Of a DNA stretch of 43,385 nucleotides, positions 542-37,400 are shown one piece after another. The notes beneath the pieces were generated by a model, which was not told the origin of the DNA, made no database searches, and worked only from the letters and a program-made list of their open reading frames with translations. This DNA is from an uncultured Telmatospirillum sp. (lineage in GTDB: Bacteria; Pseudomonadota; Alphaproteobacteria; Rhodospirillales; Magnetospirillaceae). Position 1 is the first letter of the stretch. Each line of letters starts with the position of its first letter. The translations under genes were made by a program, and so were the position numbers. The stretch is taken from positions 1-43,385 of the forward strand of contig CAIOJO010000219.1 of the NCBI GenBank assembly GCA_903858635.1, in the 5' to 3' direction.

Positions 542-590
542 CCCACGGCGCACCGTCGATAGCCTGCCAGCAAAGCGATATGGAAGGGAT

Positions 591-1148: not shown

Positions 1149-1162
1149 CCGAGGCCTGCCGC

Positions 1163-18790: not shown

Positions 18791-21700
18791 CCTGGCGCGC
18801 GGGTCGGCGGCGCGACCTCCTGGCGCGGCTCGGTGAGGAGGCGGGACGGCTGGTGCCCAGCGGCGCGGTAGCGGTCGACCAGCCGCTGATGAGCGCCGGC
18901 ATGACCTCGTTGCGCCTGGTCGAACTGGTCAGCCGGCTCAACACCGCCCTCGACCTGTCGCTGGCGGCCACCTTCCCGTTCGAATATCCGACGCTGGAGG
19001 ACATGGCCGAGGCCCTGCTCGGCATGCGCATCGCAAGCCAGGCGGAAGGCCCGGGCCCGACACAAGACTCTGGGGCGGGCGTTCCGCTTCGTGGCGAGGA
19101 TCGTCCGGGAGAGCCGATCGCCGTCATCGGCATCGGCTGCCGCCTGCCCAACGGCATCGACGGTCCCGACGCGTTGTGGAAACTTCTCGCCGAGGGCCGC
19201 GACACCGTCGGCCAGCCACCGGCCGGGCGCTGGCCCGACCCCTCGGCCGCCCCGGCGCCGGGATCCTGGCTGGCCGATCTCGACTTGTTCGACCACCGGC
19301 TGTTCCAGCTGTCGCCGGCCGAGGCCGCTGTCCTCGATCCCCAGCAGCGGCTGCTGCTGATGGTGAGCTGGCAGGCCTTCGAGGATGCCGGCATCGACCC
19401 GTTGGGTCTGCGCGGCAGCCGCACCGCGGTGTTCACCGGAATCACCAATCTCGACCAAGCCCGCTCCCAGGCCCGGGCCGGGCGCGAGGCGATGACCGGG
19501 CCTTACGCGGTGACCGGCGTATCGGCCAGCGTCGCTTCGGGCCGGCTGTCCTTCGTCTACGGTCTGGCCGGACCCAATCTCGCCATCGATACCGCCTGTT
19601 CTTCCGGGCTGGTGGCGGCGCATCAGGCGATGCGCAGTCTGCGGGCCGGCGAATGCGACCTCGCCCTGGCCGCCGCGGTCAATCTGATCCTGGTGCCCGA
19701 CACCCAACTGGGGCTTCAGGCGATGAACGCCCTGTCCCCCGACGGGCGCTGCAAGGCGTTCGACGCCCATGCCGACGGCTACGGCCGGGGCGAAGGCTGC
19801 GTCGTCCTGGTGATGAAGCGCCTGGCCGATGCAGTACGGGACGACGATCGGGTCCTGGGACTGCTGCAGGGCAGCGCCGTCAACCACGACGGCCGCAGCA
19901 GCGGGCTGACGGCGCCCAACGGCGCGGCGCAGCAGGCCGTCCTGCGGGCCGCCCTGGCCGACAGCGGCCTGGCCGGCAGCGCCATCGATTATGTCGAAGC
20001 CCATGGTACCGGCACGCCCCTGGGCGACCCGATCGAAGCCAATGCGCTGGGCGCCGTGTTCGGCGAAGACCGCCCGGCCGATCTGCCGCTGCTGGTGGGG
20101 TCGGTAAAGACCAATATCGGCCATCTCGAAGCGACAGCGGGTCTGGCCGGGCTGGTCAAGCTGCTGCTCGCCCTCGAGCATGGCCGCATCCCGCCCTCGC
20201 TGCATTTCAGCGAACCGAACCCGACCATTCCCTGGTCCGCCTTGGCGCTCGAGGTCACTGCCCAGGCGGTCGCCTGGACGGCCGGCCAGGACCGCCCCCG
20301 CCGGGCCGGGGTCAGCGCCTTCGGTTTCAGCGGCACCAATGTCCATGTCATCGTCGAGGAGGCAGCCGTCCCGGCGCCGCCGGCCAGGGTCGCCGGCCTT
20401 CCCCTGCTGCTGCCCTTGTCAGCGCGCAGCGACGCGGCCTTGGCCGCCATGGCCAAGACGACGGCCGCCGAACTGGCCGGCGCCGACGACGGCCGCCTCG
20501 TCGACCTCGCCTACACCCTGGCCACCGGACGCGCCGCCCTCGACCGGCGGATCGCGGTGGTCGGCCGCAGCAGCGCCGACCTTGCCGGCCGCCTCGAAGC
20601 GGCGGCGGCCAGACCGCAGCCGCCGGCCAGCGGCACGCCGGAGGTGATCTTCGCCTTTCCCGGGCAGGGTTCGCAAATGGCCGGGATCGCCGGCGAACTG
20701 CTCGCCCTGTCGCCGATCTTCCGCGACACCGTGGCCCGCGCCGATGCGGTCCTGGCACCCCGCCTCGGCCGGTCGCTGACCACGCTGCTGGCCGAATCCT
20801 GCAACGCCGCCGATTTGGCCCGCACCGGCCTCACCCAGCCGGTGGTGGTCGCCCTCGGCGTCGCGCTGGCGGCAATGCTTGAAGATTGGGGTATCCGGCC
20901 AACCGCCGTGCTGGGCCATTCGGTCGGCGAGATCGCCGCCGCCATCCATGCCGGAGCGATCGCCTTCGAGTCCGGCCTGGTCTTTGCCGCCGAACGGGGT
21001 CGGCTGATGGAGGGGCTGCCGGAAGGCGGCGCCATGGCGGCGGTGGTCGCCAGCGAGGACGAAGTGCGGGCGCTGCTCGACTCCGATCTCGCCCAAGATC
21101 TGGCCATCGCCGCCTTCAACGCCCCCAATCAGCTCACCATCTCCGGGCCGGCCGCGGCGCTGTCGGCATTCCGCGAACGCGCCTCGGCGCGCCACCTGCG
21201 GGTGGTGCCGCTGGCGGTGTCCCATGCCTTCCATTCGCCGCTGATCGAACCGGCCCTGCCCGAGCTCGCCCGCCTCGCGGCGCAATTGGTACCGGGCCGG
21301 CCGCGCCTGCCGGTCCATTCGACGCTGACCGGCGGCCTGATCGATCCCGCCGCCCTGACCGATCCCGATCATTGGCTGCGCCATGCCCGCCAGCCGGTGC
21401 GCTTTGCCGAAGCGCTGGGCTCGATTCCGCTGCGACCCGGGGCCTGCCTGATCGAACTCGGCGCCCGGCCGGCGTTGGGGCCGCTGGCGGCGCAGACGCA
21501 GCCTGATCTGCTCTGCCTGCCCGGCGCCAGTCAGGACGGCCTGGCTGTGGCGATGCTGGATTGCGCCGCCGCCCTGTTCATCGCCGGCACCGCCCTCGAC
21601 TGGCCGAGGCTTTACGCCGGCATTGGCGGCCGCCGGGTGCGGGCGCCCGGCTATGCCTTCGTCGAGCCGGTGCCGGCGGCTTCCCTGTTCACCGCGTCGG

Positions 21701-24700
21701 CGCCCCCGCCGTCCACCGGCGCAGGCAACGATCGAACGGTGACGGCGACGGTCACCGCCTTGCCCGTGACGGCGCCCGGCGCGACACCGCGTCCGGCGCG
21801 CCTGGCGGCGCGGCTGGTGGCGCTGGTGGCGGCGATCAGCGGGCTGCCCCCGGCCGACATCCCGCCGCGGACCAACTGGTTCGGATTCGGCCTCGATTCG
21901 CTGCTGCTGGTGCAGATCCAGCACGCGGTGAACCGGGAATTCGGCCTCGCCCTCACCCTGGCCGACCTGCTCAAGGACGGCGACAGCGTCGACGCCCTGG
22001 CCGGCCTGCTCGACCGCAGCCTGCCGGCCGAAGTCGTGCCGGCCGCGCTGCCGCCGGCCGCCGCCGCCGGGCCGGCATTGCCTGGCGATGTCGGCAGCTT
22101 GATGGCGCAGCAGGTCGAGGCGATGAGCCGGTTGTTCGCGCAGCAGCTCGACACCCTGAAGGACCTTGGCCGGGAAACTCCGGCGACGGCGGCCCCGCCG
22201 CCCGCGGCGAAGCCGAAGACCGGGCCGGAAGCGGGATCCGGCATCGAGATCAAAGGCCTGTTCCGCAAGATGCCGGCCCGGCGCGACGACTTCACCGGCG
22301 ACCAGATCGCCCATTTCGACCGGCTGGCGGTGCAATACGGGGCGCGGACCAAAGGTTCGAAGGACCACACCCAACGCCATCGCGGCCACTATGCCAACCC
22401 CCGCGCCATCATCGGCTTTCGCCCGGAATGGAAGGAGATGACCTATCCGCTCACCGTCGAGCGGGCGGAAGGGGCCCATGTCTTCGACGTCGACGGCAAT
22501 CGCTATGTCGACATCACCATGGGTTTCGGCGCCATCCTGCTTGGCCATACGCCCCCTTTCGTCGCGGCGGCAATCACCGCCGAGCTGGGGCGCGGCGCCC
22601 CGCTCGGACCGCAATCGCCCAAGGCCGGTGAACTCGCCGCGGTGATCGCCGAACTGACCGGAGTCGAGCGGGTGGCCTTCTTCACCACCGGCTCGGAAGC
22701 GGTGATGGTGGCGGTCCGCCTGGCCCGCTCGGTCACCGGCCGGCGCAAGATCGTGTTGTTCACCGGCGCCTATCACGGCACCTTCGACGGCGTGCTGGCC
22801 GCCGGTTGGGCGGACGGCGACAGCCTGGTCACTATTCCGGTCACCGACGGCACCCCGCAAAGCCTGGTCGACGACACCATCGTCCTGCGTTACGGCGACC
22901 CGGGCGCCCTCGACCGCATCCGGGCCCATGCCCAGGACATCGCCGCGGTGCTGGTGGAGCCGGTGCAAAGCCGCGACCCCGCCCTCCAACCCCACGACTT
23001 CCTGCATGCGCTGCGCGGCCTGACCCGGGACGCCGGCATCGCCCTGATCTTCGACGAGGTGATCCTCGGCTTCCGCGTCCATCCCGGCGGCGCCCAGGCC
23101 CATTTCGGCATCGAGGCCGATATGGTCACCTATGGCAAGATCGTCGGCGGCGGCCTGCCGATCGGCGTGGTCGCCGGCCGCCGGCAGTTCCTCGACGCGG
23201 TCGATGGCGGTGCCTGGTCCTATGGCGACGATTCGCTGCCGGCAGCGCGCACCGCTTTCGTCGCCGGCACCTTCAACGGCCACGCACTGTCGATGGCCGC
23301 CGGCCTGGCTGTGCTCGATCATCTGCGCAGCGCCGGCCCCCGGCTGCAGCAACGGCTGAACGAACGCACCGCCCAGTTCTGCGCCGAACTCGACGGCTTC
23401 TTCGCCGCCGAGCGGGTGCCGATCCGCATGGCGCATTTCTCCTCGCTGTTCCGCTTCGAGTTCACTCCGGGGACCGAACTTCTCAACACCCATCTGCTGA
23501 ACAACGGCGTGTTCGTCTGGGAGGGCCGCAACTGCTTCCTCTCCACCGCCCATGACGATGCCGATCTCGCCACCATCGTCGCGGCGGTGCGTCACGGCGT
23601 CGCCGAGATGCGCCGGGACCTGATGATCCCGGTGGCGGAGACGCCGGCCGAACCGGACGCGCCGATCCCCCTGTCGCAGGTGCAGCGCGAGATCTTCTTC
23701 CTGGCCGCCGCCAACGAAGCGGCCGGGCGCGCCTATCACGAAATGGTGGCGCTCGACCTGCAGGGCCCCTTCGACGCCGGCGCCATGGATCGCGCCGTCC
23801 GCCGCCTGGCGGCACGCCACCAGGCGCTGGGCATGGCCGCCGTCGACGGCGAGACCTGGCGGCCGGCCGCAGCCCCGTTGTCGCTGCCGGCCGCCAGCGA
23901 GATTGGCCCGGCGCCCGAAGCGCTGCGCCAGGCGCTGGCCGCGGAGATCGACCGGCCCTTCGATCTCGCCGCCGGTCCGCTGCTGCGCTTGGCCCTGCTG
24001 CGGCGGGGCCCGGACCATCATTGCCTGGCTCTGACCGCCCATCACATCGCCGTCGACGGCTGGTCGCTGGGCCTGCTGACCGGCGAGCTGGGCGCCCTGT
24101 ACGGGGCCGAGCGGCAGGGACAGCCCCTGGATCTACCGCCCGCCGCGCCGTTCGGCGAATTCGTGCAGTGGGCCGCCCAACTGGCGCCCGCCGCTGCCGG
24201 CAAGCGTCTGCCGCCGCTCGACTTGCCGGCGCTGGGGGCGGCGGACGACAGCGGCCGGGCCCGGCGGCTGCATCGCCGCGATCCGGCGGCGCCCGACGGG
24301 GGCCGGCTGTTGGCCCAGCTCAAGCGCTTCGCCCGCGACCAGGGCGCCAGCCCGTTCGCCGTCCTGCTGGCCGCCTTCACCGCCTTTTTCGGCCGCTTGG
24401 CCGGCCAGGGCAGCTTCGCCGTCGGCATGCCCTATGCCGGCCACGCCGCCGCCGGATTGCCGGTCATGGTCGGCCAGGCCTCGGTAATCCTGCCGATCCC
24501 GGTGAGGCTGGACCCCGCGCTGAATTTTGCCGAGCATTTGCGCCACAGCAGCGACGCCCTGGCCGAGGCGCTGCAGGGCGCCCTCGATCTGATGCGCCCC
24601 GGCACCCCGGTGCGCGCGCCGATCACCGCCTTGGTCAACATGGATCGCGGTGTCGAGGTGACCTTCGACGGGCTGACGGTGGACTGGGTATCGGCGCCGG

Positions 24701-27700
24701 CGATCCGCGCCAAGCACGGCCTGTTCCTCAACCTGCTCGAGTTCAACGGCAGCGCGCTGTTCGATTTCGATTGCGACGGCGCAATCGCCGATGCCGAAAC
24801 CGCCGAACTGTGGTTCGACGGCCTGCTCGCCCTGCTGGCCGCCGCCATCGCCACGCCGCAGATGGCGCTGGGCGCCCTGCCGATGCCGGCGGTCGCCGAC
24901 CGGACCCGGCCGGCGGATCGCCCGCGGCACCGCCGGCCCCGCAACATCGAACCGCCCGCCACGGCGGAAGAGGCCCGGCTGGCGGCGATCTGGGCCGAGG
25001 CCCTCGGCCTGGAGGAGGTCGGCGTTACCGAATCCTTCTTCGATCTCGGCGGCCACAGCCTGGCCGGGCTGGCCATCCTCAGCACCATCGAGCGGCAGAC
25101 CGGCCGCAGGGTGCCGATTCGCCTGTTCTTCGAAGGACCGTCGGTGCGGGCGCTGGCGGCGGCCCTCGGCCGGACGGAAGACCCAGCCCCGGCCATCCGA
25201 CCGACGCCGGAAGCAGCCGATTACCCTGCTTCCAATGCCCAGGCGCGGCTGTGGATGCTCGAACAGCTCAATCCCGGGCTCACCGCCTATAACGTCGGGA
25301 TCGGGCTATGGAGTCCGGCGCCACTGGATCCGGCGGTGGTCCGCCGCAGCCTGGCGCGGTTGGCGGAGCGCCATGAAAGCTTGCGCACCGCCCTGATCGA
25401 GCGGGATGGGCTGCCGCGCCAGAAGATTGCCGCAACCATCGCCCTGCCGCTCGCCGAACGGGCCGTCGCCGACCGGGCCGCCGCCATCCTGGAGGCGCAG
25501 GCCCTGGCCGCCGCCCCGTTCGACCTGGCGGAAGCGCCCCTCTGGCGGGCCCTGCATCTGAAGCTCCCGAACCAGGACTGCCTGCTCCTGGTGCTCCACC
25601 ACAGCATTTGCGACGTCTGGTCGATGACGGTCCTGGTCCGCGACTTCGTCGCCTTTGCCCAGGGGGCCGATCCGTCGCCCCTGCCGATCCAGTTTCGCGA
25701 TTACGCGGCCCAACCGCAGCGACCGACAGACAGCGATCCCGATCTCGCTTATTGGCGGGACCAGCTTGCCGGGCCACCGGCCTTCCTCACTCTGCCGAGC
25801 GACCATCCGCGCCCGGCCGTCAAGGGTTACGACGGCGCCCGGGTCCGCACCAGACTATCGGCGGCGATGGCCGAACGCGTGCGGGCACTGGCGGCGGACC
25901 ACGGCACCAGCCTGTTCGTGGTGCTGGCGGCAGCGCTCAAGGCATTGCTGCATCACCGCACCGGCGAGAGCGACCTCACCATCGGCACGGTGGTGGCCGG
26001 GCGGGAACAGGCCCTGCTCGACGATCAGATCGGTTTCTTCGTCAACACCCTGCCGCTGCGCGACCGCATCGACCCCAAGGCCGGCTTCGACCGGCTGGTG
26101 GCGCAGCTGCGCCGGACGGTGCTGGAAGCATTCGAGCATCAAGCGGTGCCTTTCGAGCAGATCGTCGAGGCCTTGCCGCGCGACACGGCGCGCAACCCGC
26201 TGTTCGAGATCATGCTGGTGATGGACGACCGCCAAGGCATCCGTGCCGCCGGAGCGCCGCTCGGACTGGAACCCTTCGAGATCGAATTGCCGACCGCCCA
26301 ATTCGACGTCACCCTCTACGTCACCGACGAGCCCGCCTTCATCGACCTGCACACCGTCTACAACAGTCGCCTGTTCAAGGAAGAGCGCATCGCGGCGTTG
26401 ATGGCGGATTTCGGCCTGCTGCTCGACCAGGTCACCGAGCAACCCGAGACTCCGGTGGCGGCATTGGCGTCCACAACCGTCCTCGCCAACAGCCATCAGG
26501 AGCGCCTGTGGTTCGTCGACCGCTTCGAGCGGGGCGTGCTCTACCCGTCCGGCCCCACCTACTACAATATGCCGCTGGCGGTGGAAATTGCCGCCGGCTT
26601 CGATGGCGACCGCCTGCGGCAGGCGCTGGCAGAACTGTCCGGGCGCCATCCGGCGCTGCGCACCGCCTTCCTCGAAGACAGCGAGACTCCGCTGCTCCGT
26701 GTTGCCCGGCAAGGCGATCCGGTGCCGCTGCGGGAGCTGTCTTCGGTGGCCGATCCCCTTGCCGCCGTCATCGCCGAATCCCAGGTGCCGTTCCGCCTGG
26801 CCACCGCCCCCCTGTGCCGCGCCATCCTGGCCCGCCGGCCGGACGGCAGCGGTCTGTTGGCGCTCGCCGCCCATCACGCGGTGACCGATCCGGTGGGTCT
26901 GCGGCACCTGCTGGCCGATCTGCTGGCGCTGACCGCCGATCCCGCCGCCCCGCCGCCGGCGCCGGCCACCGAACCCGTAACGGCTGTCGACGAGGCCGAA
27001 GCCGCCGCCTATTGGCATGAGGCGCTGGCCGGTGCGGCCCCCTTGGTCCTGCCGACCGACCGGCCGCGGCCGGGAATCCACCTCTACGAAGCCGGGCGCA
27101 CCGCCTTCACCCTGCCCGCCGCCCTGCTGCGTCGGCTCGATGCCGCGGCCAGCGAGCGCGGGCTGGCCCGCTGCGACCTGCTGCGCGCCGCCTTCCAGAC
27201 CCTCCTGCACCGCTTGTCCGGTCAGAGTGATATCGTCCACGGGGAACCGCTGCATCGGGCCCATTTCCCCGCCAATCTGCTGGTACTGCGGAGCGATCCG
27301 GGCGCCGCAGCGAGCCTCGCGGCACTGGCCGCCCGGGGGCGGGTCGAACGCGCCGCGGCCGAACGGCATGGGGCAATGGCCTTCGACCGCGTCGTACTGG
27401 CCGTCAAACCGCAGAACGATATGAGCCGCACCGCCCTGTTCGACGTGCTGTTCGACGACGGAGAGGGAGAGCTTGCCGGACTGGCCGACCCCAGCTTGAT
27501 CGATCCGGGTCTGGGCTGGGGCAAATACGATCTCGTGCTCTGCTTGCGGGGCGCCGGCGAGGACCTGTCGGTCAGTCTGGTCTTCAACCGGCTGTTGTTC
27601 GACGACGCCAGCGCCGACCGCATCGCCGAATTGTTCCGCCGACTGGCCGAGGCGGCAGCGAACGACCCGGACGCGCCGCTGGCGTCGGTCGACCTGCTCG

Positions 27701-30700
27701 GAGCGGCGGCACGCTTTGCCCTGGCCGAGTCGCTGGCGGTGCCGGCCCCGCAGCGGACGGATGCGACGATTCCCAGCCTGTTCCGGGCGGTGGCCGCGGC
27801 GCGCGGCGAGGCCATCGCCGTAACCGACGGCGAGCGCCAGATCAGCTATCGCCAACTCGACCGTGCCGCCCAGGCCATCGCCGCCCGCTTGCGCGCCGCC
27901 GGCATTGGCCGGGACAGTCGCGTCGGGGTGATCATGGAACGCGGCGCCGAACTGATCGCCGCCTTCCTCGGTATCCTCGACGCCGGCGCCGCCTATGTGC
28001 CGATCGATCCCGAGCTGCCCCCGGACCGCATCCGCTTCGTGATCGCCGATGCCGGCCTTGGCGCCCTTTGTGTCGCCGCCGGGACGGGAACCGGGTTGCA
28101 ACAGCTGGACGTCGCCCTGCCGGTCGTCGCAATCGACCGGGTGGAAATGCTGGTGGCAACCCCGGCGCCGCCGGCGGCGCCGGGAACCAGCGATTCCGCC
28201 CCCGAGGATCTCGCCTATGTGATCTACACCTCGGGCTCCACCGGCCAACCCAAGGGGGTGGCCATCGAACATCGCAACGTCGTCCAGCTGCTGTTTCAGG
28301 ACGGCCTTCCCTTCCGCTTCGATGCCGCCGATGTGTGGACCTTGTTCCATTCGCCCAGCTTCGACTTCTCGGTGTGGGAAATGTACGGCGCCCTCCTGTT
28401 CGGCGGCCGGCTGGTGGTGGTCAGGCGCCATCAGGCGGCCGACCCGGCGGCGATGGTCCGCCTGCTGGCGGGCGAGGGCGTGACCGTGCTCAATCAGACC
28501 CCGACGGCATTCCAGGGCCTGAGCGAAGCGGCCCTGGCCGAGGCGCCGCAGCCCCTCGCCCTGCGTTTGGTGATCTTCGGCGGCGAAGCGCTGCAGCCGG
28601 CCGGGCTGGCGCGCTGGCGGGACCGCTACCCGGCGGTGCGGCTGGTCAATATGTACGGCATCACCGAAACCACCGTCCATGTCACCTGGGCGGAGATCGG
28701 CGACGCCGAGATCGCCACCGGTCAATGCCTGATCGGCAGGCCGCTGCCGACCTATGGCCTGGTGCTGGTCGATACGGCGCTGCGCCCGGTGCCGGACGGC
28801 CTGCCCGGGGAAATCTGCGTTACCGGGCCTGGCCTGGGGCGCGGCTATCTCAACCGGCCGGAGCTGACCGCCGAGCGTTTCCTCGCCCTGCCGGATTTCC
28901 CCGGTCGTCGCTTCTATCGCTCCGGCGATCTCGCCTGGCGGCGTGGCGACGGGGCGCTGATCTACCTCGGCCGCCGCGACGACCAGGTGAAGATTCGCGG
29001 CTTCCGCATCGAGTTGGCCGAGATCGAGCGGCAGCTTCTGGGACAGGCCGAAATCCGTCAGGCGGTGGTGCTGCCGGAACCGTCCGATGGCGGCCGCAGC
29101 CTGACCGCCTGGCTGGTCGCCGCCTCCGCCCTCGCCGGCGGCCTGAATGGCGAGACGGTCCACCGCCATCTCGGCGACAAGCTGCCGGCCTATATGATTC
29201 CCTCGCGCTTCGTCGAGTTGCCGGCCATACCGCTGACCCGCAACGGCAAGATCGATCGGCGGGCACTCGGCGGCGCCTCCGGCCGCGTCCTCGCCACCGT
29301 GCGCGGCGGCGCACCGGCAACGGATGGACTCGAACGGACCATCGCCACCATCTGGCAGGAAATTCTTGGCGGAGCCCTGCCGGGCCGCGAGGATAATTTC
29401 TTCCTGTTGGGCGGCCACAGCCTGCAGGCCAACCAGGCGGTGGTGCGCCTGCGCCGCGCCTGCGGCTGCGCCCTGAGCCTCAAGGATTTCTTCAGCGCAC
29501 CCTCGCTCGGCGCCTTGGCCACCCTGATCCGCTCCGGCGCGGCGCAGGCGGGCGGCGACCAGCCGCAGACGATCACCCGCGCCGAAGCCATTGAGGGCAG
29601 TTATCCGTTGTCGCCGGCGCAGCGCCGCTTGTGGTTGCTGCAATCGCGGGACCCGCGGACCCTCGCCTACAACATGGTGGGAGCCTTCCGGATCGACGGA
29701 GCCCTGGACCGCGAAACGCTTGCCCGCGCCTTCGCCCAACTGCTCGCCCGCCATGAAGTGTTGCGCAGCCGTTTCGTCGAACGGCGCGGCGAACCCCGCC
29801 AGGTTGTCCTGCCCGCGCCGGCGAAGTTTGCCCTGCCCTCGACCGTGGTGGCGGCAGCCGATCTCGACCAAGCCATCGATCGGGTGGTGGCCGAGGAACT
29901 GCGCCATGTTTTCGATCTCGGCCGCGGCCCGCTGCTGCGCGCCCGGCTGATCGCCGCCGCCGGCAGCAACGGCGAGGGCCATTACGGGCTGGTTCTCAAT
30001 ATGCACCATATCGTCGCGGACGGCTGGTCGGTGACCGTGCTGCTGAACGATCTCGCCCGCCTTTACGGCGGCGGCGACCTGCCGCCCCTTCCCGTCCAAT
30101 ACAAGGATTATGCCGCCTGGCAAACCGCACTGCTGGCCGACGGCAGCCTGGCCACCCAGCGCGCCTATTGGCATGCCCGCTTCGAGGATGAACCGGCGCC
30201 GCTCGACCTGCCGCTCGACCGTCCGCGAGCGGCCCAGCCGAGCCAGGCCGGCGCTTTGCTGCAGGTCCGCCTCGAACCGGCACTGGCGGCAGCGCTGGAA
30301 GCAAGGGCACGGGCCGCGGATTGCAGCTTGTTCATGCTGCTGCTGGCGATTCTCCAGGTGCAGCTGCATGCCCTTTCCGGCGCCGACGAAGTGGTCATCG
30401 GCACCCCGGTGGCCGGGCGCAACCATGTCGATCTCGAGGCGCAGATCGGCTTTTATCTCAACCTGCTGCCGCTGCGGCTCGGCCTCGGCGGCGCCAGCCG
30501 CTTCTCCGAGCTGTTGGCCAGCGCCCGCGCCGTCGCTCTCGACGCCTTCGCCCACCAGGATTATCCCTTCGACCGCCTGGTGGAAGAGCTCGCCCCCGTC
30601 CGCATCCCCGGCCGCCAGCCGCTGTTCGACCTGCTGCTGATCCTCCAGAACAACGATCCACCGCGACTGGCGCTGCCCGGGGCACGGACGGAATTGCTGC

Positions 30701-30963
30701 GCGATGCCACGGTGAGCGCCAAATACGACCTCAATTACATGTTCGAGCGGGATGATGGACTGTCGCTGACCATCGAATATGCGACCGAGTTGTTCGACGC
30801 CCCGACCGTCGAACGCTTTGCCGCCGAATTCCAGCGCATCGCCGCCATCGTCGCCGTGGACGGCGATGCGTCGCTGGCCCCTTTGTTGGCCGGCGGCAGG
30901 GTTGTCGCCGAGGCCGCTTTCCTGGGTTCGGCCGCCCCGGCGGCACGGGGCGAGGACTGGTAG
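17074..30963 (+). CDS. Hybrid FAAL-PKS-aminotransferase-NRPS megasynthase. Domain order: FAAL-ACP-KS-AT-ACP-AMT-C-T-C-C*-A-T-C.
   Basis: See the domain features below. The preferred start ATG at 17074 ([14 protein letters not shown]...) resembles FAAL N-termini and overlaps the autotransporter stop by 11 nt. The alternative in-frame ATG at 17026 (MSPPPPPP) has its Shine-Dalgarno too close. Confidence 0.95.
18840..19040 (+). other. Carrier protein 1 (ACP).
   Basis: [15 protein letters not shown]; phosphopantetheine-attachment Ser context. Confidence 0.6.
19111..20360 (+). other. Ketosynthase (elongating).
   Basis: The Cys-His-His triad is intact: [33 protein letters not shown]. Confidence 0.85.
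20641..21620 (+). other. Acyltransferase, malonyl-type.
   Basis: FPGQGSQ, GHSVGE, and HAFHS (an HAFH motif typical of malonyl-CoA specificity). Confidence 0.8.
21790..22020 (+). other. Carrier protein 2 (ACP).
   Basis: [14 protein letters not shown]. Confidence 0.65.
22290..23620 (+). other. Class III PLP aminotransferase (AMT) domain, the beta-amino-forming domain seen in iturin/mycosubtilin-type synthetases.
   Basis: [42 protein letters not shown], and the PLP-Lys region [13 protein letters not shown]. Confidence 0.8.
23668..24900 (+). other. Condensation domain C1.
   Basis: [10 protein letters not shown]...; HHIAVDGWS. Confidence 0.8.
24955..25170 (+). other. PCP with no cognate A domain in cis.
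   Basis: [30 protein letters not shown] sits directly between C1 and C2. There is no room for an A domain of about 500 aa. Confidence 0.75.
25219..26470 (+). other. Condensation domain C2.
   Basis: [13 protein letters not shown]...; HHSICDVWS (HHxxxD present, the Gly replaced by Val). Confidence 0.75.
26479..27760 (+). other. Second, contiguous C-like domain (C*) with a degenerate active-site motif.
   Basis: [12 protein letters not shown]...YYNMPLAV... follows C2 directly without a carrier. The motif is HHAVTDPVG instead of HHxxxDG. Confidence 0.65.
27770..29275 (+). other. Adenylation domain A1.
   Basis: [72 protein letters not shown]. Confidence 0.85.
29320..29540 (+). other. PCP.
   Basis: IWQEILGG...[11 protein letters not shown]. 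Confidence 0.75.
29593..30960 (+). other. Condensation domain C4 at the C-terminus of gene 1; it forms a split module with the A-T at the start of the second NRPS.
   Basis: [13 protein letters not shown]...; [10 protein letters not shown]. Confidence 0.8.
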
Positions 30964-30967: not shown

Positions 30968-32845
30968 ATGTGCGGAATCGTCGGCATTTTCGACCCCGCC
31001 AGCGAGGGGCTTTCGTCGCCGGACCTGCTGCGGCGGATGGCGGGAGCGCTCCGCCATCGCGGCCCCGACGACGAGGGCTTCTTCGAACGGCCGGAAGTTC
31101 AACTGGGCTTCCGCCGCCTGGCGATCATCGACCTCGCCGGCGGCAACCAGCCGATGGCCAGCGCCGATGGCCGGGTGGTCTCGGTGTGCAACGGCGAGAT
31201 CTACAATTATGCGGAACTGCGCAGCGAACTAGAGGCGCGCGGCCACCGCTTTCGGACGAACTGCGACGTCGAGGTGATCCCGCCGCTCTATCTGGAATAC
31301 GGACCGGATTTCGTCACCCGCCTCAACGGCCAGTTCGCTTTCGCCCTCTACGACATTCCCAATCGCCGCCTGATGCTGGCCCGCGATCCGGTGGGCATCG
31401 CGCCGCTGTTCACCGTCGCCTGCGGCAACGGCCTGCTGTTCGCTTCCGAGATCAAGGCCCTGCTGCAACATCCCGCCACCCCGCGGGCCGTCGACCTGAC
31501 CGGGCTCGACCAGATCCTGACCTTTCCCGGCCCGGTCAGCCCGCGCACCATCTTCCGGGACATTGCCAGCCTGGCGCCAGGCAGCCGCATGATCGTCGAG
31601 GCTTCGGGACGGCGGCGGATCGATACCTATTGGGATCTCGACTATCCGCGCATGGACGTGGCAGCGCCGGTGGGCCGCGAGGAAGACTACGTCGACGCCC
31701 TCGACGAGGCACTGCAAGCCGCGGTGCGGCGCCGGTTACGAGCCGACGTGCCGGTGGGCCTCTATCTGAGCGGCGGCCTCGACAGCTCGCTGATCGCCGC
31801 CATGGCGCAGGGGATCTCGGGCGGTGCCGACCGGCAATCCTTCGCCATCGGCTTCCACGACCCCGCCCTCGACGAGCGCCGCTACCAGCAGATCATGGTG
31901 GAACGACTCGGTACCCGCCATCATCAGGCGATCGTCGATCCCGATGCCATCTGCGGACGGCTGCGCGACATCGTCTTCCATGCCGAAGCGCCGCTGCGCG
32001 AATCCTACGACGTCTGCTCGCTGATCCTGTCCGGCCTGGTCCGCGATAATGGCATCAAGGTGGTGCTGACCGGCGAAGGCGCCGACGAGCTGTTCGGCGG
32101 CTATGTCGGCTATCGCCTGGACCCGCATCGGGCCGATGCCGAAGACGACGACCCCAATGACCTCGAAGCCCAGCTCGAGGCGGAGACTCGCCAGCATCTG
32201 TGGGGCGATCGGAATTTCTTTTACGAAAAGCCCTATCGCGCCTTCGCCGACCTCAAGACGGCGCTCTATGCGCCGGCGCTGCGCGAAGCCTTCGCCGAAT
32301 TCGACTGCCTGCGGGACTCGCCGGTCGATCGCCGCCGGCTGGACGGACGGCACGTGCTGCACAAGCGCTCCTATCTCGATTTCAAATTGCGCCTGGCGGA
32401 TCACCTGCTGGCCGACCATGGCGACCGGGTCGCCTACGCCCATTCGATCGAAGCGCGCTATCCCTTCCTCGACCCCCAGGTCATCGACCTGGTGCGGACC
32501 CTGCCGCCCGACCTGATGGTGAAGAACGGCATCGAAAAATACCTGCTGAAACGCCTCGCCGCCCGCTACCTGCCGGCCGCCATCACGGAACGCCAGAAGT
32601 TCAGTTTCGTCGCTCCTCCGGGACCGGCGCTGCTGCAGGCCGGCCATTCCTGGGTCGAGGACCTGTTATCGCCCGAACGCATCCGGCGGCAAGGCTATTT
32701 CGACCCGGAGACCGTCGAGGCGATGAAGGCGCAATATCGCCGGCCCGATTTTGCCCTCAACCAGACCTTCGACGATGATCCGCTGATGGTCGTCCTGACC
32801 TTCGGCATCCTGCTCGAAACCTTCGACCTGCCAAACCTCTCCTGA
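30968..32845 (+). CDS. Asparagine synthetase (glutamine-hydrolysing) AsnB-like amidotransferase.
   Basis: N-terminal nucleophile MCGIVG; PP-loop LYLSGGLDSSLIAA. The ATG lies 4 nt after the megasynthase TAG stop. Confidence 0.9.
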   Translation: MCGIVGIFDPASEGLSSPDLLRRMAGALRHRGPDDEGFFERPEVQLGFRRLAIIDLAGGNQPMASADGRVVSVCNGEIYNYAELRSELEARGHRFRTNCDVEVIPPLYLEYGPDFVTRLNGQFAFALYDIPNRRLMLARDPVGIAPLFTVACGNGLLFASEIKALLQHPATPRAVDLTGLDQILTFPGPVSPRTIFRDIASLAPGSRMIVEASGRRRIDTYWDLDYPRMDVAAPVGREEDYVDALDEALQAAVRRRLRADVPVGLYLSGGLDSSLIAAMAQGISGGADRQSFAIGFHDPALDERRYQQIMVERLGTRHHQAIVDPDAICGRLRDIVFHAEAPLRESYDVCSLILSGLVRDNGIKVVLTGEGADELFGGYVGYRLDPHRADAEDDDPNDLEAQLEAETRQHLWGDRNFFYEKPYRAFADLKTALYAPALREAFAEFDCLRDSPVDRRRLDGRHVLHKRSYLDFKLRLADHLLADHGDRVAYAHSIEARYPFLDPQVIDLVRTLPPDLMVKNGIEKYLLKRLAARYLPAAITERQKFSFVAPPGPALLQAGHSWVEDLLSPERIRRQGYFDPETVEAMKAQYRRPDFALNQTFDDDPLMVVLTFGILLETFDLPNLS

Positions 32846-32879: not shown

Positions 32880-34400
32880 ATGCAACGCAACGCTTACGTG
32901 GAGCAGTTCGAGTGGCAGACCGAGACCCGCCCGGCGGCGATCGCCATCGAGGCCGGCGGACGGGAGGTGAGCTACGGAACGCTGAATCGCGACGCCAACC
33001 GTCTCGCCCATGCCCTCGGCAGCGGGTCCGCCGGAACCGCCCCGCGGATCGTCGGCCTGTTCCTCGAACCCGGCATCGCCTATGTCGGCGCGCTGCTGGC
33101 GGCCGGCAAGGCGGGCGCCGCCTTCATGCCGTTGGATCCGGCCGATCCGCCGGCCCGGCTGGCCGACAAGCTGGCCCGCAGCGGGGTCCGCCAAGTCATC
33201 ACCGACTCCCGGTTGGCGCCACTCCTGGCCGAACCTCTGGCCGGCCGGCCGGAGGTGGCGCTGTTGGTGGCGGACCATGCCGGCGCCGGCCTGCCGGACA
33301 GCAATCCCGGCCTCGCCGTCAAGGCCGGCGATCCCTGCTACGTCATGTTCACCTCGGGCTCGACCGGAACACCCAAGGCGATCCTCGGCCAGCAACGCGG
33401 CCTCAGCCATTTCCTGCGCTGGGAACTGGCCGAATTCGGACTCGACGAACGCTGCCGGATCTCCTGGCTGGCGCCGCCCACCTTCGATGTCAGCCTGCGC
33501 GACATCCTGGCGCCGCTGATGGCCGGCGGCTGCCTGTGCATTCCCGACGAGCCCACCGCCCGCACGCCGCGGCTGCTGATCCGCTGGCTGGCCGACCGCC
33601 GGATCACCCTGGTCCATTGCGTTCCCACCGTGCTGCGCCTTCTGACCCAAGAACTGGGATCAACCGGGGCGGCCCTGCCGCTGCCCGACCTCGGCCATCT
33701 CCTGGTGGCGGGGGAACCCCTCTACGGCGCCGATGTCGCCGCCTGGCGCGCCGCCGCCGGCGGTGGCGCCCGGCTGGTCAATCTGTACGGGCCCTCGGAA
33801 ACCACCCTCGCCAAGCTGTTCCATCGGATCGAGGACCTGCCCGCCGATCCGCGCCGGGTGCTACCCATCGGCCGGCCGCTGCCCAATACCGCGGTGTTGA
33901 TTCTCAAGAACGGCAAGCCCTGCGTGGTCGGCGAAATCGGCGAGATCCATATCCAGACCCCCTATCGCAGCCTCGGCTATCTCGGCGATCCGGAATTGAC
34001 GGCAGCCGCCTTCATCGCCCATCCGCAGAATCCGGCCGAGCCGGAACCGCTCTACCGGACCGGCGATCTTGGTCGCATCAACGAGCAGGGACTGGTGGAA
34101 TGCCTCGGCCGCATCGACAACCAGGTCAAGATCCGCGGTATCCGGATCGAACTGGGCGAGATCGAGGCTGCCATGCGCAGCCTGCCCGGGGTCGCCGATG
34201 CGGCGGTGACGGTGCATGCCGATCAGTCCCAAACACTGGTCTGCTACGTCACCGGCCGCGATGGTCCGCCGCCGGCGGCGGAAGCATTGCGCCAAGGACT
34301 GACGGCGATTCTGCCGCCGGCGCTTCATCCCCATCTGTTCGTCCCCCTCGCCCTGCTGCCCCGCACCCTCAGCGGCAAGATCAACCGCAAGGCCTTACCC
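32880..34400 (+). other. Adenylation domain A2.
   Basis: MFTSGSTGTPKA, TFDVSLRDI, NLYGPSETT, YRTGDLGR, GRIDNQVKIRGIRIELGEIE, SGKINRKAL. Confidence 0.85.
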
Positions 34401-37400
34401 CGGCCCGAAGCGCTGTTCTACCAACAGCACGCCTTTGCCGCGCCCGAGAGCGCCGCCGAAGAACGGCTGTGCCGGATCTGGAGCGAGCTGTTCGGCATGG
34501 AGCGGATCGGTGTGACCACCGCATTCGTCGAGTTCGGCGGTGACTCGCTGAAAGCGATGCGCGCCCTGGCCCGCATCTACGACGACTTCGGCATCGAGGT
34601 CAGCCTGCGCGATTTCTTCTCCCGTCCCACCATCCGCGCCCTGGCCTCCCTGCTTGCCACTACGGCCCAGCCTGCGGTCCCCGGCGCGCTGATTTCCCGA
34701 ATGCCGGAGATGCCCGACTATCCGGTATCGGCGGTCCAGGCACGGCTGTGGACGCTTGACCGCATGGGGGTCGCCCCGACCGCCTACAATCTCGCCGAAG
34801 CCTATCTGCTGGCCGGCCCGCTCGATGCCGAGGCCCTGGAGCAGGCCTTCCAGGCCACCATCGCCCGCCATGAATCGCTGCGCACCGCCTTCGTCGAGGG
34901 GGCGGGCGGCCTGCCCCGCCAAGTCGTCCATGCCGACCCGGCCTGGCGCATGGAACGGTTCGCAATGGCCTCGATCGAAGAGGCGGAAGCCGCGGCGGCA
35001 GCCAATCCCGAACATCCCTTCGATCTATCCCGGCCCACCCAGCTGCGGGTCGTCCTCATCCATTTGCCTGCCGGCCAGGACATCGAACGGCATGTGCTGC
35101 TGTTCAATATCCACCATATCATCAGCGATGTCTGGTCCCTCGACCTGCTGGTCCGCGAGGTGGCGGCACATTACCGGGCACGCATCGACACTGGCGGCGA
35201 GGCTCCCCTGCCCCCCCTCGCGCTGCACTATCGTGATTTCGCCGGCTGGCAACAGGCGCGGCTGTCCGGCCCCGATGCCGGCGCCGACCGGGCCTTCTGG
35301 CACGCCCATCTGGCGGCACCGCGGCCCCTGCTCGATCTGCCGACCGACCTGCCGCGCCCGGTGATGCAGACCTTCCGTGGCGCCACGCTGCACTTCGAGC
35401 TGCCGCCGGACAACCTGGCGGCGCTCGACCGTCTGGCCGAGACGCGCGGCGCCAGCCGCTTCTCCCTCCTCGCGGCGCTGACCGGACTGCTGCTGCACCG
35501 CGTCACCGGCCAGACCGACCTGATCCTCGGCAGCCCGGTGCTCGGACGCGATCAGCCCGGCCTGCAAGAGCAGATCGGCTGTTTCGTCAATGAACTTGCC
35601 CTTCGCCTGAGGATCGCTTCCGACGACAGCTTCGCCGACCTCCTGGCCCGCATGGCCGAAACCGTCGGCGGCGCTTTGCAGCACCAGTCCTTCCCCTTCG
35701 ACGCCCTGCTGGGTGAACTGGAATTGCGCCGGGACATCAGCCGCGCGCCGCTGTTCGATGTCATGGTGGTGCTGCAGCCGGAGGACAGTCTCGATCTGAC
35801 CCTCGACGGGATCGCAGTCTCGCCGTTCGGAGCGCGCAACGCCTGGAGCTTCAGCCGCTACGATCTGGTGTTCCATTTCATGGAAACCGCGGACGGGCTT
35901 CGCCTCGACCTCAATTACAACACCGATCTGTTCCTGCCCGCGCGGATCCGCCGACTGGGCGCCCTGTGGCTGGAAGCGGCGGAGGCCGCCGCCCTGGCCC
36001 CGGATGCGCCGTTGGCGTCCCAGGCGCCGCTGCCGGCCCAGGAAGTAACGCTGTTGGCCGAGCTGGCGGCGGGGCCGATGCGGCCGCGGCCGCAAGAGGC
36101 GACCATGGCGAGCCTGGTCGCGGCGCAGGCGCTGCGGGATCCGCAAGCGCTGGCGGTGCTGGCGGCGGGACAGTCGGTGAGCTACGGGCGGCTCGACCAG
36201 GCTGCCGGGCGGATCGCCCGACATCTGGCGGAACGGGGGATCCGACGCGGCGACCGGGTGGGGGTGCAGGCCCTGCCGAGCGCTGCCAGCCTGGCCGCAT
36301 TGCTGGGGATTCTCTATGCCGGAGCGGTCTATGTGCCGCTCGATTCGACCCTGCCGACGGCGCGGCTGGCGTGGATGGCGGCTCGCGCCGGCTGCCGCCT
36401 GGTGCTGGTCGACACGGCGGACGAGACCCGCCCCGAGGTCGGCGAAGCGGCAGCGGTGGCCGCCATTCTCGGCAGCGCCGATCCTGCCGGCTGGGCGCTG
36501 GAGGGACAGTCGGGTGGCCTCGACGCGGCGCTCGCGCCACGTCCGGAGGATGCCGCCTACCTCATCTTCACCTCCGGCTCGACCGGGGAACCCAAGCCGG
36601 TCCTGGTGGCCCACGGCGGTTTCGTCAACATGACCCTGGGCCAGGTCGAAATCCTCGGCTTAACGACGACGGACCGGGTGTTGCAGTTCGCCTCGCCGGG
36701 GTTCGACGCCGCCCTGGCCAATCTGTTCATGGCCTGGGTGGCGGGCGGGGCGGTGGTCACCATCGAGCGCGCGACGATTGACGATCCAGGACGCTTTCTC
36801 GCCACTCTGGACGCGACGAAGTGCAGCGTGGTGACCCTGCCGCCGACCTATCTGCGGATGCTCGACCACGCAACATTGGGCCCGGTGCAGGTGCTGATCA
36901 CCGCTGGCGAGCCGGCCGTAGCGGGGGATCTGGGCCATTACGCGAATCACCTGCGGGTGTTCAACGCATACGGTCCGACCGAGATCTCGGTCTGCGCCAC
37001 CATGCATCGGGTGCAGCCGGCGGATGGCGCCTTGGCCCGCATTCCCATCGGCCGGCCGCTGCCCAACGTCACCATCCGACTGCTCGATGCGGCCGGACGC
37101 GCGGTGCCGGCGGGCGCCGTCGGCGAGATCCATATCGGCGGGCCGGGCGTGGCGCTCGGCTATCTCGGCGATTCGACGGCGACCGCGGCGCGTTTCGTCA
37201 TCGGCAATAGTGGAGAGCGGCTCTATCGCAGCGGCGATCTGGGCCGATGGCGTGAAGACGGTAGCCTCGACTTCCTGGGCCGCAACGACGATCAGGTCAA
37301 GGTGAACGGCCATCGCCTCGAACCGGGCGAGGTGGCAGCGGCGCTGCGTGGCCTGCCCGATGTCGCCGACGCCCATGTCGCCGGGCTGACGCGGCCCGAC

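Follow-up and report, generated by a model that had tools for sequence, protein, structure and literature searches.

A conserved accessory condensation-fold domain linked to threonine-activating adenylation domains in a hybrid PKS-NRPS of an uncultured Telmatospirillum sp.

The second of two contiguous condensation (C) domains in a hybrid PKS-NRPS from an uncultured Telmatospirillum sp., here designated C*, belongs, as judged by sequence comparison, to a distinct and conserved condensation-fold subfamily, which we name C′. On the same grounds, members of this subfamily are inherited together with threonine-activating adenylation (A) domains, to which they are fused directly on the upstream side, and C* is a conserved specialised domain and no decaying relic. 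C* represents a kind of extra C domain that has already been reported, but is so far uncharacterised. We infer that the preceding domain, C2, would make the peptide bond, and that C* would act on threonine bound to the carrier of its own module, with a setting of the β-carbon configuration, to give L-allo-threonine, as the outcome that we tentatively favour. This little-studied family may explain the origin of L-allo-threonine in some bacterial peptides.

Anatomy of the C2-C* didomain

The window, i.e., the whole stretch of 43,385 nucleotides analysed, carries on its forward strand a single open reading frame (positions 17026-30963) for a hybrid PKS-NRPS of 4645 aa, defined from the ORF list and its translation, and from Pfam, which returned four Condensation, two AMP-binding, KS, AT, Aminotran_3 and four PP-binding matches. 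The domain order of this protein, FAAL-ACP-KS-AT-ACP-AMT-C1-PCP1-C2-C*-A(Thr)-PCP2-C4, is found identically in nine alphaproteobacterial loci. All of its domains and motifs described below lie on the forward strand. On the 5' side of the didomain, Pfam and motifs delimit an A-less module, C1 (HHIAVDGWS)-PCP1, at 23668-25200; a C-terminal A-domain remnant of approximately 160 aa between C1 and PCP1, present in the orthologues, is gone in the window. On the other side, a canonical C-A linker joins C* to the A(Thr) domain (27760-29265; Stachelhaus code DFWNIGMVHK, with motifs A4 at nt 28357 and A5 at nt 28648), followed by the carrier that this domain serves, PCP2 (29308-29550), and by C4 (29578-30960, HHIVADGWS), an ordinary downstream C domain that hands the chain to the next protein. 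The modules further downstream are A-PCP-C-A(MT)-PCP-E. PCP2 has the motif GGHSL, the type paired with LCL domains (PMC10880069).

The initial annotation had described two contiguous condensation folds with no carrier between them, and this was borne out: both folds are complete, the NRPS-type motif GGHSL occurs only at nt 25048 (PCP1) and nt 29410 (PCP2), and the strings quoted in support (HHSICDVWS, HHAVTDPVG and SHQERLWF, the last of which opens the second domain) were found where they had been placed. Moreover, phmmer searches against PDB chains matched both halves over their full length to the C domain of teixobactin Txo2 (227 bits and E = 3e-66 for C2; 108 bits and E = 7e-30 for C*). Both matches far exceed chance, and the pair is a genuine C-C didomain and no misparsed linker. 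An AlphaFold2 model of C* has a mean pLDDT of 90.7 and a pTM of 0.88, and this predicted structure can be overlaid on canonical C domains (query-normalised TM scores of 0.75-0.83). As C2 and C* are only 30% identical, the pair does not stem from a recent duplication.

C2 (25204-26457) is a canonical-type condensation domain with intact motifs C1, C2, C5, C6 and C7, and a further motif of 11 residues at nt 26029-26061. Nevertheless, its active site (HHSICDVWS, 25597-25623, aa 2858-2866) is also non-canonical, as the HHxxxDVWS form, with Gly replaced by Val, is present in every orthologue, including that of locus L009, a relative from the Desulfovibrionaceae. C* (26458-27759), assigned as a C′-type accessory domain from its match to Txo2, its model and its clade membership, had been called degenerate. 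This is correct in so far as it is no ordinary elongation domain but a specialised, non-canonical one, in which both the C4 motif and the canonical IGxFVNT form of C5 are missing, as is the Gly after the Asp, but His-His-x3-Asp is retained in its active site (HHAVTDPVG, 26872-26898, aa 3283-3291), where Gly is replaced by Pro. Alignment of the orthologues delimits an N-terminal signature of 27 residues beginning with HQERLWF (26494-26574) and a C5-equivalent segment of 13 residues (27253-27291). Two further signatures follow, one of 13 residues in place of the canonical RDxSRNPLF C7 motif (27415-27453), and one of 11 residues containing GxGKYD (27508-27540).

The C′ subfamily and its link to threonine

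In the phylogenetic tree, all 28 collected C′ domains, and no others, group together within the LCL-like C domains, apart from E domains, DCL domains and one interface domain. Their sources are Alphaproteobacteria, Desulfovibrionaceae, Chitinophaga, Aliikangiella and metagenomes, and they share the signatures HQERLWF(V/I)DxFE..LY..PxY(H/Y)N, HHxxxD without the Gly, DMSRTALFD and GxGKYD. An alignment of 16 sequences from four phyla, spanning 37-72% GC, has 39 invariant columns; residues invariant in it include H, Q, R, W, F, F, E, Y, P and Y of the N-terminal signature, DMSRT..FDVL, and G, G, K, Y and D of GxGKYD. The residue after the Asp is variable across the family (R in nine members, P in five, K in five, G in two, D in two, and Q, H and Y in one each). 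The second His and the Asp, the conservation of which had been singled out for checking, are both kept in the window copy, while two of the 28 members have lost the second His. In addition, the C5-equivalent loop of C* has a deletion of 7-8 residues relative to the other 15 aligned members, which removes the family 'GP', and the domain carries a P308A change; the loss of the second His and these two changes count against the L-allo-threonine reading. On the other hand, C* is as conserved between orthologues (46-51% identity) as its catalytic neighbours C1 (43-50%) and C2 (46-51%), in favour of its being a real family member.

C′ domains are found after an intact ordinary C domain, at the start of a protein, or as free-standing genes, one of which (locus L043) adjoins a free-standing Thr-like A gene. 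Whenever a C domain directly precedes C′, its HHxxxD and C5 motifs are intact, and C′ thus appears, from its sequence context, to be extra to an ordinary C domain and no replacement for it.

The constant partner of C′ across the wider family is the downstream threonine-activating A domain. A Thr-code A domain follows directly in 25 of the 26 fused copies scored; the Thr code is present in all 11 loci of the window type and in two further metagenomic cases, and all ten orthologues of the window A domain have the code DFW(N/S)(I/V)GMVHK. Within a set of 150 large NRPSs, a Thr-code A domain follows C′ in 12 cases out of 13 (the thirteenth has DVWNVAMVH), and the association is strong (Fisher p = 5.7e-14). 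The same set holds 53 Thr-code A domains, 40 of which are preceded by an ordinary C domain, and one of which has no C domain upstream. As most of the A(Thr) domains that follow C′ fall into one group, this link may partly reflect descent of a single C′-A cassette.

Such descent bears on the possibility that C* is non-catalytic, a former C domain of a mobile C-A(Thr) cassette that was spliced behind an existing C and kept as a C-A platform or gate. The canonical linker at the end of C*, the short C2-C* junction, the lost second His in two members and the shortened loop in the window copy would all suit this explanation, and in the myxoglucamide pathway a C-like interface domain was dispensable in vitro (PMC13638107). 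However, among the invariant positions shared across phyla are HH..D and motifs not conserved in ordinary C domains, conservation is at the level of the neighbouring catalytic domains, and the 40 Thr-code A domains mentioned above manage with an ordinary C and no C′. Furthermore, C′ also exists as a free-standing gene, which would hardly be expected of a domain that serves only as a scaffold within its own protein. We therefore regard a purely structural role as unlikely, though far from implausible.

Comparison with named condensation subtypes

It had also been proposed that an X-type platform, a dehydrating domain or an epimerising dual domain would add chemistry to the residue delivered by the A-less carrier. 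That an extra C fold adds chemistry is plausible, but for threonine on PCP2 and not for the A-less carrier: since locus L009, which has no A-less module, keeps C2-C*-A(Thr) right after the aminotransferase, C* is not tied to that carrier. Moreover, by scores, motifs and position, no named class fits C*. The domain lacks the N-terminal second HH motif of dual E/C domains, and the EGHGR and FNYLG motifs of E domains; it scores 28 bits on its own to the teicoplanin X domain, and its position is also wrong for an X domain. Against the C′ profile, Txo1 reaches 298 bits and elongation C domains 283-298 bits, compared with 86-90 bits for Cy chains and 79.5 bits for the CDA starter C. Two C-superfamily domains that divide the labour before one Ser/Thr A domain do occur in VibF of vibriobactin, Cy1-Cy2-A(Thr), where the roles are split between the Cy domains, and in icosalide, C-Cstart-A(Ser); unlike C*, the former are Cy domains with the DxxxxD motif, and the latter includes a starter-type C. 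A review lists tandem cyclization domains and covers the tandem C of icosalide (PMC10510592).

Interface (I) domains (Reitz et al. 2019; glidomide; myxoglucamide MxgB) are likewise extra C folds located after a true C and before an A domain, with a proposed action on the amino acid of their own module's carrier. However, they lack the HHxxxDG histidines, work with αKG dioxygenases and are dedicated to Asp, His or Glu, whereas C* has retained HH..D, is tied to Thr and shows no conserved association with a dioxygenase. There is accordingly little likelihood that C* is an interface- or X-type platform docking a trans-acting tailoring enzyme onto Thr-S-PCP2, even though it stands where interface domains do, as the x of C-x-A-T (PMC13638107), the teicoplanin X domain is scored fairly well by the C′ profile (230 bits), and the window holds two candidate partners, a TauD-family dioxygenase gene (6370-7392) and an AsnB-like amidotransferase gene (30968-32845). 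A probable interface domain, from a C-TauD / I-A-T locus, lacks HH, scores 42 bits to C*, below its score to C4, and falls outside the C′ clade. Neither is any partner gene conserved: the AsnB-like gene is missing from L009, related loci have no TauD gene within 10 kb of C*, and that of the window, which has a weak resemblance to TmpA and butyrobetaine dioxygenases, lies 10 kb upstream, with regulatory genes in between.

Dehydrating (modAA or DHC) C domains (AmbE-C2, AlbB-C2 and C3, LgnD-C2, NocB-C5) share the C fold and act at the β-position of hydroxy amino acids, Thr among them, while these are bound to a carrier. C* could then be a new positional variant that converts Thr to dehydrobutyrine (Dhb), which we consider very improbable. 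In its favour, C′ is specific for Thr modules, and Dhb occupies the equivalent position in related β-amino lipopeptides, the laxaphycins (β-amino acid-X-Dhb) and the puwainaphycins. Moreover, water elimination from Ser/Thr by C folds is known (PMC10880069). However, the characterised domains follow the loaded carrier, which is of the GGDSx type, work on it from the donor side and have an intact HHxxxDG, while C* lies upstream of A, lacks the Gly and works with a GGHSL carrier; kinship to AmbE is distant as well (39 bits to C*, and 105 bits to the C′ profile against 298 bits for Txo1). In addition, the tandem-C module of keanumycin presumably delivers allo-Thr6 and not Dhb7, an assignment to residue 6 that we take from the published residue order and partly from the nunamycin and cormycin sequences.

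Tandem-C relatives and a possible route to L-allo-threonine

The closest described parallel in architecture that we consider is megapolipeptin from Paraburkholderia megapolitana, with MgpB (KS-AT-T-TA-C-A-T) and MgpC, C-C-A(Thr)-T-C-A(Ser)-T-KS-KR-DH; the second C of MgpC has HHxxxDR and a function for which the authors offer only a hypothesis, and L-allo-Thr is part of the product (PMC11411415). The window follows the same order, KS-AT-T-aminotransferase-C-(A)-T and then C-C-A(Thr)-T-C, with HHxxxD followed by a residue other than Gly (R in MgpC, P in C*) and a Thr-specific A domain behind. MgpB differs from the window in retaining its A domain, and downstream megapolipeptin has Ser and a PKS module in place of A-PCP-C-A(MT)-PCP-E. 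That the second C of MgpC would be a C′ domain is suggested by HHxxxDR and by a proxy with MgpC-type domain order, P0079, the C′ of which is 46% identical to C*. The megapolipeptin authors tentatively suggested for MgpC a starter-like domain acylating the β-amine of the fatty chain; its second C was reported to clade with starter C domains, megapolipeptins are N-acyl capped on the β-amine, and the window enzyme also makes a β-amino acyl chain via AMT. For C* such a role is extremely improbable, as 12 of the 13 C′ domains of large NRPSs belong to proteins with no aminotransferase or PKS part, and therefore no β-amine to cap (P0079, with KS-KR, being the exception), the CDA starter C falls far below elongation C domains on the C′ profile, and the tree nests C′ away from N-terminal C domains.

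Keanumycin, from Pseudomonas, contains one L-allo-Thr, and the first module of KeaB has a 'tandem CL domain', also present in thanamycin and nunamycin, which its authors describe as not yet investigated (PMC9897216). In its described architecture, KeaB resembles the window in placing two consecutive LCL-type C domains before one A-T, with the published module count and residue order leading to L-allo-Thr, albeit in a pure NRPS lipodepsipeptide context. These systems also bear on whether C* is a second working C domain, through which two threonines would be inserted, either by using A(Thr)-PCP2 twice or by letting A(Thr) also charge PCP1, which has no A domain of its own. The proposal made for MgpC, with two consecutive Thr units assigned to one C-C-A-T module, the retained HHxxxD, and the A-less carrier directly upstream, which needs a trans or neighbouring A domain, all speak for it. 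However, in the published module count the tandem C of keanumycin leaves colinearity undisturbed, with residues 6-9 matched by three full KeaB modules and a C-T-TE. A single carrier without an A-less module next to it is the rule among C′ modules and holds for L009, every family member has another sequence in place of the C5 motif that lines the acceptor site, and it is hard to see by what mechanism donor and acceptor could share one carrier. Two threonines are thus a quite improbable outcome.

With regard to the L-allo-threonine reading, C2 would join the chain on PCP1 to Thr-S-PCP2 by a peptide bond, and C*, which sits on the A(Thr) platform where a canonical C would be and retains His-His-x3-Asp, would act on the threonyl thioester of PCP2. 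The most likely result would be control of the β-carbon configuration, possibly through elimination followed by re-addition of water, or through retro-aldol followed by aldol, on the thioester. We hold this reading tentatively: we know of no precedent for β-carbon inversion by a C fold, jagaricin contains N-Me-L-allo-Thr from a module with no reported extra C, and another route to L-allo-Thr has been proposed in actinomycetes. Nevertheless, the GGHSL motif of PCP2 and the L-type C4 fit an L-configured α-carbon, and the occurrence of both a tandem-C module and L-allo-Thr in the megapolipeptin and keanumycin families is in line with a β-carbon role of C′.

The C2-C* didomain of the megasynthase

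The window (63-73% GC) encodes on its forward strand a hybrid PKS-NRPS megasynthase (17026-30963, 4645 aa), for which Pfam and motif mapping gave the domain order FAAL-ACP-KS-AT-ACP-aminotransferase (class III)-C1-PCP1-C2-C*-A-PCP2-C4. Its predicted N-terminus, MSPPPPPPVGSW, overlaps the preceding gene (17026-17084) and, as the FAAL domain starts near aa 30, the true start codon may be located further downstream.

We focused our attention on C2 (nt 25204-26457) and C* (nt 26458-27759), two full-length condensation folds on the forward strand. NRPS-type carrier serine motifs were found only at nt 25048 and nt 29410, on either side of the pair. In phmmer searches against the PDB, the teixobactin Txo2 C domain was matched with 227 bits by C2 and with 108 bits by C*, and the AlphaFold2 model of C* (pLDDT 90.7, pTM 0.88) displays a complete two-lobed C fold that superposes on canonical elongation C domains (Txo, TycC6 and LgrA) with query-normalised TM values of 0.75-0.83. 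The two domains share 30% identity. These results confirm the didomain of two complete C folds without an intervening carrier that had been described in the initial annotation, and the motifs HHSICDVWS, HHAVTDPVG and SHQERLWF were all found where it had placed them.

C2 is canonical apart from a Val in place of Gly (HHSICDVWS, nt 25597-25623), with HHxxxD and the C5 motif intact. The degeneracy previously attributed to the C* active site is partial: the Gly following the Asp is missing (HHAVTDP), the C4 motif is not recognisable and the C5 motif is replaced, but HHxxxD itself is retained. Two features are particular to the window copy. It lacks 7-8 residues of the C5-equivalent loop (nt 27253-27291, GPxxNL), including the family-conserved GP, and it carries Ala at a near-invariant Pro (P308A); the 15 other aligned members keep the loop, and the substitution was not seen in any of them. 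It was also observed that HHxxxDVWS of C2 is kept in every orthologue (L001-L010), the one from Desulfovibrionaceae included; the Val of C2 is thus a second conserved departure from HHxxxDG within the didomain.

The C′ family and known condensation-domain subtypes

Used alone as query in a word-indexed homologue search, C* retrieved one true relative, a fragment, and no plasmid match was obtained by tblastn at E ≤ 1e-20. An exhaustive representative search with C* provided a reference set of 150 large NRPSs, in which approximately 810 C-fold domains were labelled by context; the ranking of that search is dominated by multi-module NRPSs that sum several C-domain scores, and it is not usable as a list of relatives. 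Among these domains, 13 bear the C* signature, which consists of S(Y/F/W)HQERLWFIDxFE..LY..PxYHN(I/L)P, HHxxxD followed by R, P, K, H or Q, DMSRTALFD, and GxGKYD. All four motifs were found in C* itself, as HQERLWF(V/I)DxFE..LY..PxY(H/Y)N, HHxxxD-not-G, DMSRTALFD and GxGKYD. We refer to this accessory family as C′. Its named hosts include Chitinophaga, Aliikangiella and Rhodospirillum. Within the large NRPSs, 11 C′ domains stand directly behind an ordinary C domain and two at the start of a protein; the first C of every tandem pair has HHxxxD and the C5 motif intact, and the carrier (GGHSL) and the next C of these modules are ordinary. A profile search added four members, two fused before a Thr-code A domain and two free-standing (426-442 aa).

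A neighbour-joining tree built from 122 C-fold domains placed the 28 C′ sequences together in an exclusive clade without outsiders, nested among LCL-like domains and distant from the E and DCL domains and from one probable interface domain. As for the second His and the Asp, whose conservation the initial annotation had singled out for checking, both His and the Asp are among the 39 invariant columns of a 16-sequence alignment, but the second His is absent in 2 of the 28 members.

The two free-standing copies are from metagenomic loci. One (L040, 10001-11329, 442 aa) stands after a large NRPS that ends in a reductase, and has ABC-transporter, LspA (Peptidase_A8) and Rce1-like genes as neighbours. 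A globomycin-like reading of this locus, suggested by the LspA gene beside the free-standing C′, was rejected on two grounds: the terminal reductase of the NRPS, and the specificity of its last two A domains, which is neither Thr nor Gly. The other copy (L043, 966-2246, 426 aa) is followed by a C-A-T protein and directly preceded by a free-standing Thr-like A domain (code near DFWNIGEISK).

Subtyping of C* was carried out by profile and motif tests instead of NaPDoS. True members score 403-519 bits against the C′ profile. Among PDB chains, no solved structure belongs to C′; the profile gave 253-298 bits with elongation C domains (Txo1, Txo2, DhbF-like, TycC6 and fuscachelin, with Txo1 at 298), 230 bits with the teicoplanin X domain, 105 bits with the AmbE dehydrating C domain, 86-90 bits with Cy domains, 79.5 bits with the CDA starter C domain and 78 bits with the TycA E domain. 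PDB 8z0q, described as a "special condensation domain", is the terminal C domain of HtmB2 and not a relative.

C* is not a canonical LCL elongation domain, as HHxxxDG and IGxFVNT are absent and it is the second C of its module. A starter C domain is contradicted by its internal position, by the low CDA starter score (79.5 vs 298 bits for Txo1) and by the tree, where it is not nearer to N-terminal C domains. As to a Cy domain, HHxxxD is present but DxxxxDxxS is absent, and the Cy chains scored only 86-90 bits. Dual E/C and E identities were discarded for both halves of the didomain, since neither C2 nor C* contains HH(I/L)xxxxGD, the N-terminal motif expected of the dual E/C domain considered in the initial annotation, nor EGHGRE or FNYLG. 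Likewise, C2-C* is not the E-C part of the common PCP-E-C-A tandem, C2 having C-type and no E motifs.

Two other proposals of the initial annotation fared no better. The glycopeptide X domain stands after the last PCP and before the TE, has a mutated active site and recruits P450s, whereas C* has a C domain before it and an A domain after it and matches the teicoplanin X domain (4tx2) with 27.8 bits; no P450 was found in Pfam scans of the window ORFs scanned. Dehydrating C domains (modAA/DHC) act downstream of a loaded carrier and pair with GGDSx carriers (PMC10880069), whereas C* is upstream of A(Thr) and both PCP1 and PCP2 of the window read GGHSL. Moreover, AmbE scored 38.7 bits with C* and 105 bits with the profile, as compared to 108 and 298 bits for Txo.

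Interface domains, a recognised C-like subtype associated with αKG β-hydroxylases, include one that proved dispensable in vitro (PMC13638107). In interface domains, the HHxxxDG histidines are lost, the partner is an Fe/αKG β-hydroxylase and the residue is Asp, His or Glu; in C*, by contrast, HH..D is kept and the A domain is Thr-specific. The sole interface-domain reference in our comparison was the metagenomic locus L039 (17-5256), where a C-TauD fusion precedes a protein composed of a C-like domain without the histidines (LPALCAD), an A and a PCP, an arrangement that matches the one published for an integrated β-hydroxylase with an interface domain. This probable interface domain gave 42 bits with C* against 98 bits with C4 and fell outside the C′ clade. 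In the related loci, C* has no TauD gene nearer than 10 kb. On sequence, A-domain specificity and absence of a conserved partner, this identity was rejected. Overall, C* is a specialised, non-canonical C fold, as had been supposed, but it belongs to none of the subtypes that had been listed for it.

Association with threonine and published tandem-C systems

The A domain behind C* has the canonical Thr Stachelhaus code DFWNIGMVHK, and DFW(N/S)(I/V)GMVHK was found at this place in all ten related loci. In the large NRPSs, 12 of the 13 C′ domains directly precede a Thr-code A domain and the remaining one precedes DVWNVAMVH; both further metagenomic fused copies also stand before a Thr-code A. Of the 53 Thr-code A domains in the same 150 NRPSs, 40 stand behind an ordinary C domain and one has no C upstream; Fisher's exact test gave p = 5.7e-14 for the association between C′ and the Thr code. 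The A(Thr) domains found behind C′ mostly group together, and the C′-A(Thr) unit therefore behaves as a co-inherited cassette; such co-inheritance could account for part of the association. The assignment of C* to a conserved, Thr-locked accessory C-fold family is secure, and we see little room for doubting it.

A genome scan detected this megasynthase, with an identical series of domains, in Azospirillum, Bradyrhizobium, Methylobacterium, Xanthobacter, Pseudochelatococcus and a Rhizobiales MAG. The C* orthologues of these alphaproteobacterial loci are 46-51% identical to the window copy and share long invariant blocks with one another, and C* diverges no more than C1, C2 and C4, the catalytic domains around it. 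A Desulfovibrionaceae MAG (L009, 37% GC) has ACP-AMT-C-C*-A-PCP-C and lacks the C1-PCP1 module; its first C is the C2 orthologue (HHSVCDVWS), and its C* has all the same blocks. Hence, the C2-C*-A unit is old and independent of the A-less module. As C2-C*-A(Thr) is conserved from Alphaproteobacteria to Desulfovibrionaceae, the tandem is unlikely to be the relic of an A-PCP deletion between two modules. The chemistry added by the second C fold had been ascribed to the residue on the A-less carrier; this has to be corrected, as the constant partner of C* is A(Thr)/PCP2 and not PCP1, and the special step predicted for the window concerns Thr on PCP2.

The C1-PCP1 module (23668-25200) contains no A domain. 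In the alphaproteobacterial orthologues among L001-L010, approximately 160 aa between C1 and PCP1 (ORF aa ~2640-2810) look like the degenerate C-terminal end of an A domain, with A7-A10-like stretches (GRLRPDGT..LG, HPAV..AVV, LP....P), and this remnant is entirely gone from the window. The neighbouring A(Thr) is a candidate loader of PCP1.

Tandem C domains in Thr modules have been noted in passing for keanumycin, thanamycin, nunamycin and megapolipeptin, and neither tests of their function nor their description as one family was found in the literature searched. In megapolipeptin biosynthesis in Paraburkholderia megapolitana, MgpB is KS-AT-T-TA-C-A-T and MgpC is C-C-A(Thr)-T-C-A(Ser)-T-KS-KR-DH; HHxxxDR occurs only in the second C of MgpC, and L-Thr and then L-allo-Thr are both credited to one module; iterative use of this module and an N-capping role are suggestions made by the authors (PMC11411415). 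This layout follows the same logic as the window megasynthase. The first module of the keanumycin protein KeaB contains a "tandem CL domain", which thanamycin and nunamycin also have and which its authors called not investigated, and keanumycin contains one L-allo-Thr (PMC9897216). A Rhodospirillum protein (P0079) has the MgpC-type domain order, and its C′ shares 46% identity with C*, a value within the range of the orthologues. P0079 and the HHxxxDR of MgpC are the support for a putative link between C′ and the published examples MgpC and KeaB, whose second C domains may carry the C′ signature. Judged by the module count, and by the sequences of nunamycin and cormycin, the L-allo-Thr of keanumycin would be residue 6. 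The papers on chitinopeptin, nobilamide, laxaphycin and jagaricin offer no conclusive explanation for extra C domains. In actinomycetes, L-allo-Thr has been proposed to form on separate A-T proteins and to enter via A-less modules.

The two families with known chemistry have a single product feature in common, L-allo-Thr, whose α-carbon is L-configured, in agreement with the GGHSL carrier and with a downstream C domain of LCL type. C2 would perform the condensation, and C*, seated on the canonical C-A platform, would act on Thr-S-PCP2. The shared L-allo-Thr favours control of the β-carbon configuration as the role of C*. This functional claim is a tentative hypothesis, less probable than its negation. 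In its most far-reaching form, likewise less likely true than false, C′ would be a new catalytic subtype that inverts the β-carbon of carrier-bound Thr. It would then supply the missing route to L-allo-Thr, and possibly to an E-Dhb precursor, in Gram-negative non-ribosomal peptides, and the signature before a Thr-code A would predict L-allo-Thr with the sequence as sole input.

C′ now stands as one sharply bounded clade, recognisable by four short motifs and tied to Thr-activating A domains across several phyla, and it is probably present in both of the above product families for which L-allo-Thr is known. Should the link to L-allo-Thr be true, it would provide a stereochemical predictor for genome mining, a portable C′-A(Thr) cassette for NRPS engineering and a tractable means of studying in vitro a step of peptide biosynthesis that lacks an explanation. 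Should C′ instead be inert, assembly lines would offer in it a well-documented case of a pseudo-enzyme domain conserved over a long time.

Neighbouring genes in the window

A gene at 13596-17084 encodes a β-lactamase/D-aminopeptidase-like serine hydrolase fused to an autotransporter β-barrel and overlaps the megasynthase start by 59 nt. By analogy with ClbP-type prodrug activation, one may speculate that its product acts on the lipopeptide as a processing peptidase displayed at the cell surface. Downstream of the megasynthase, a glutamine-dependent asparagine-synthase family gene (AsnB-like, 30968-32845, with the true start MCGIVG near 30968) scores 466 bits against TIGR01536 (model cut-off, 267 bits). 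It lies between both NRPS genes, was detected there in 7 of the 9 alphaproteobacterial loci and is absent from L009; Asn supply, amidation and lactam formation are candidate roles.

The second NRPS (32880-40229), present in all nine alphaproteobacterial loci, is A-PCP-C-A(methyltransferase insert)-PCP-E. Its terminal domain (38850-40229) is an epimerase, with HHLVADAV, EGHGR and FNYLG, preceded by a GGDSI carrier. No C, TE or reductase was found downstream of it within the window; the chain-release step is missing there. Regarding its A-domain codes, DVRHLALLAK has no obvious assignment, and DAATIAAVCK, from the A domain that bears the methyltransferase insert, is similar to a Phe-type code but has Ala in the place of Trp239. 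The next gene encodes an Sfp-type phosphopantetheinyl transferase (40162-40929).

Upstream, a TauD-family dioxygenase gene (6370-7392, reverse strand) is located 10 kb from the megasynthase; its product is weakly similar to TmpA and to γ-butyrobetaine and clavaminate-type enzymes, and a two-component system, a class-V aminotransferase and a ParA-like gene lie between it and the cluster. At the left end of the window (528-2338), adjacent genes for a pyruvoyl-dependent arginine decarboxylase and an Orn/Lys/Arg decarboxylase probably belong to polyamine metabolism, unrelated to the cluster.
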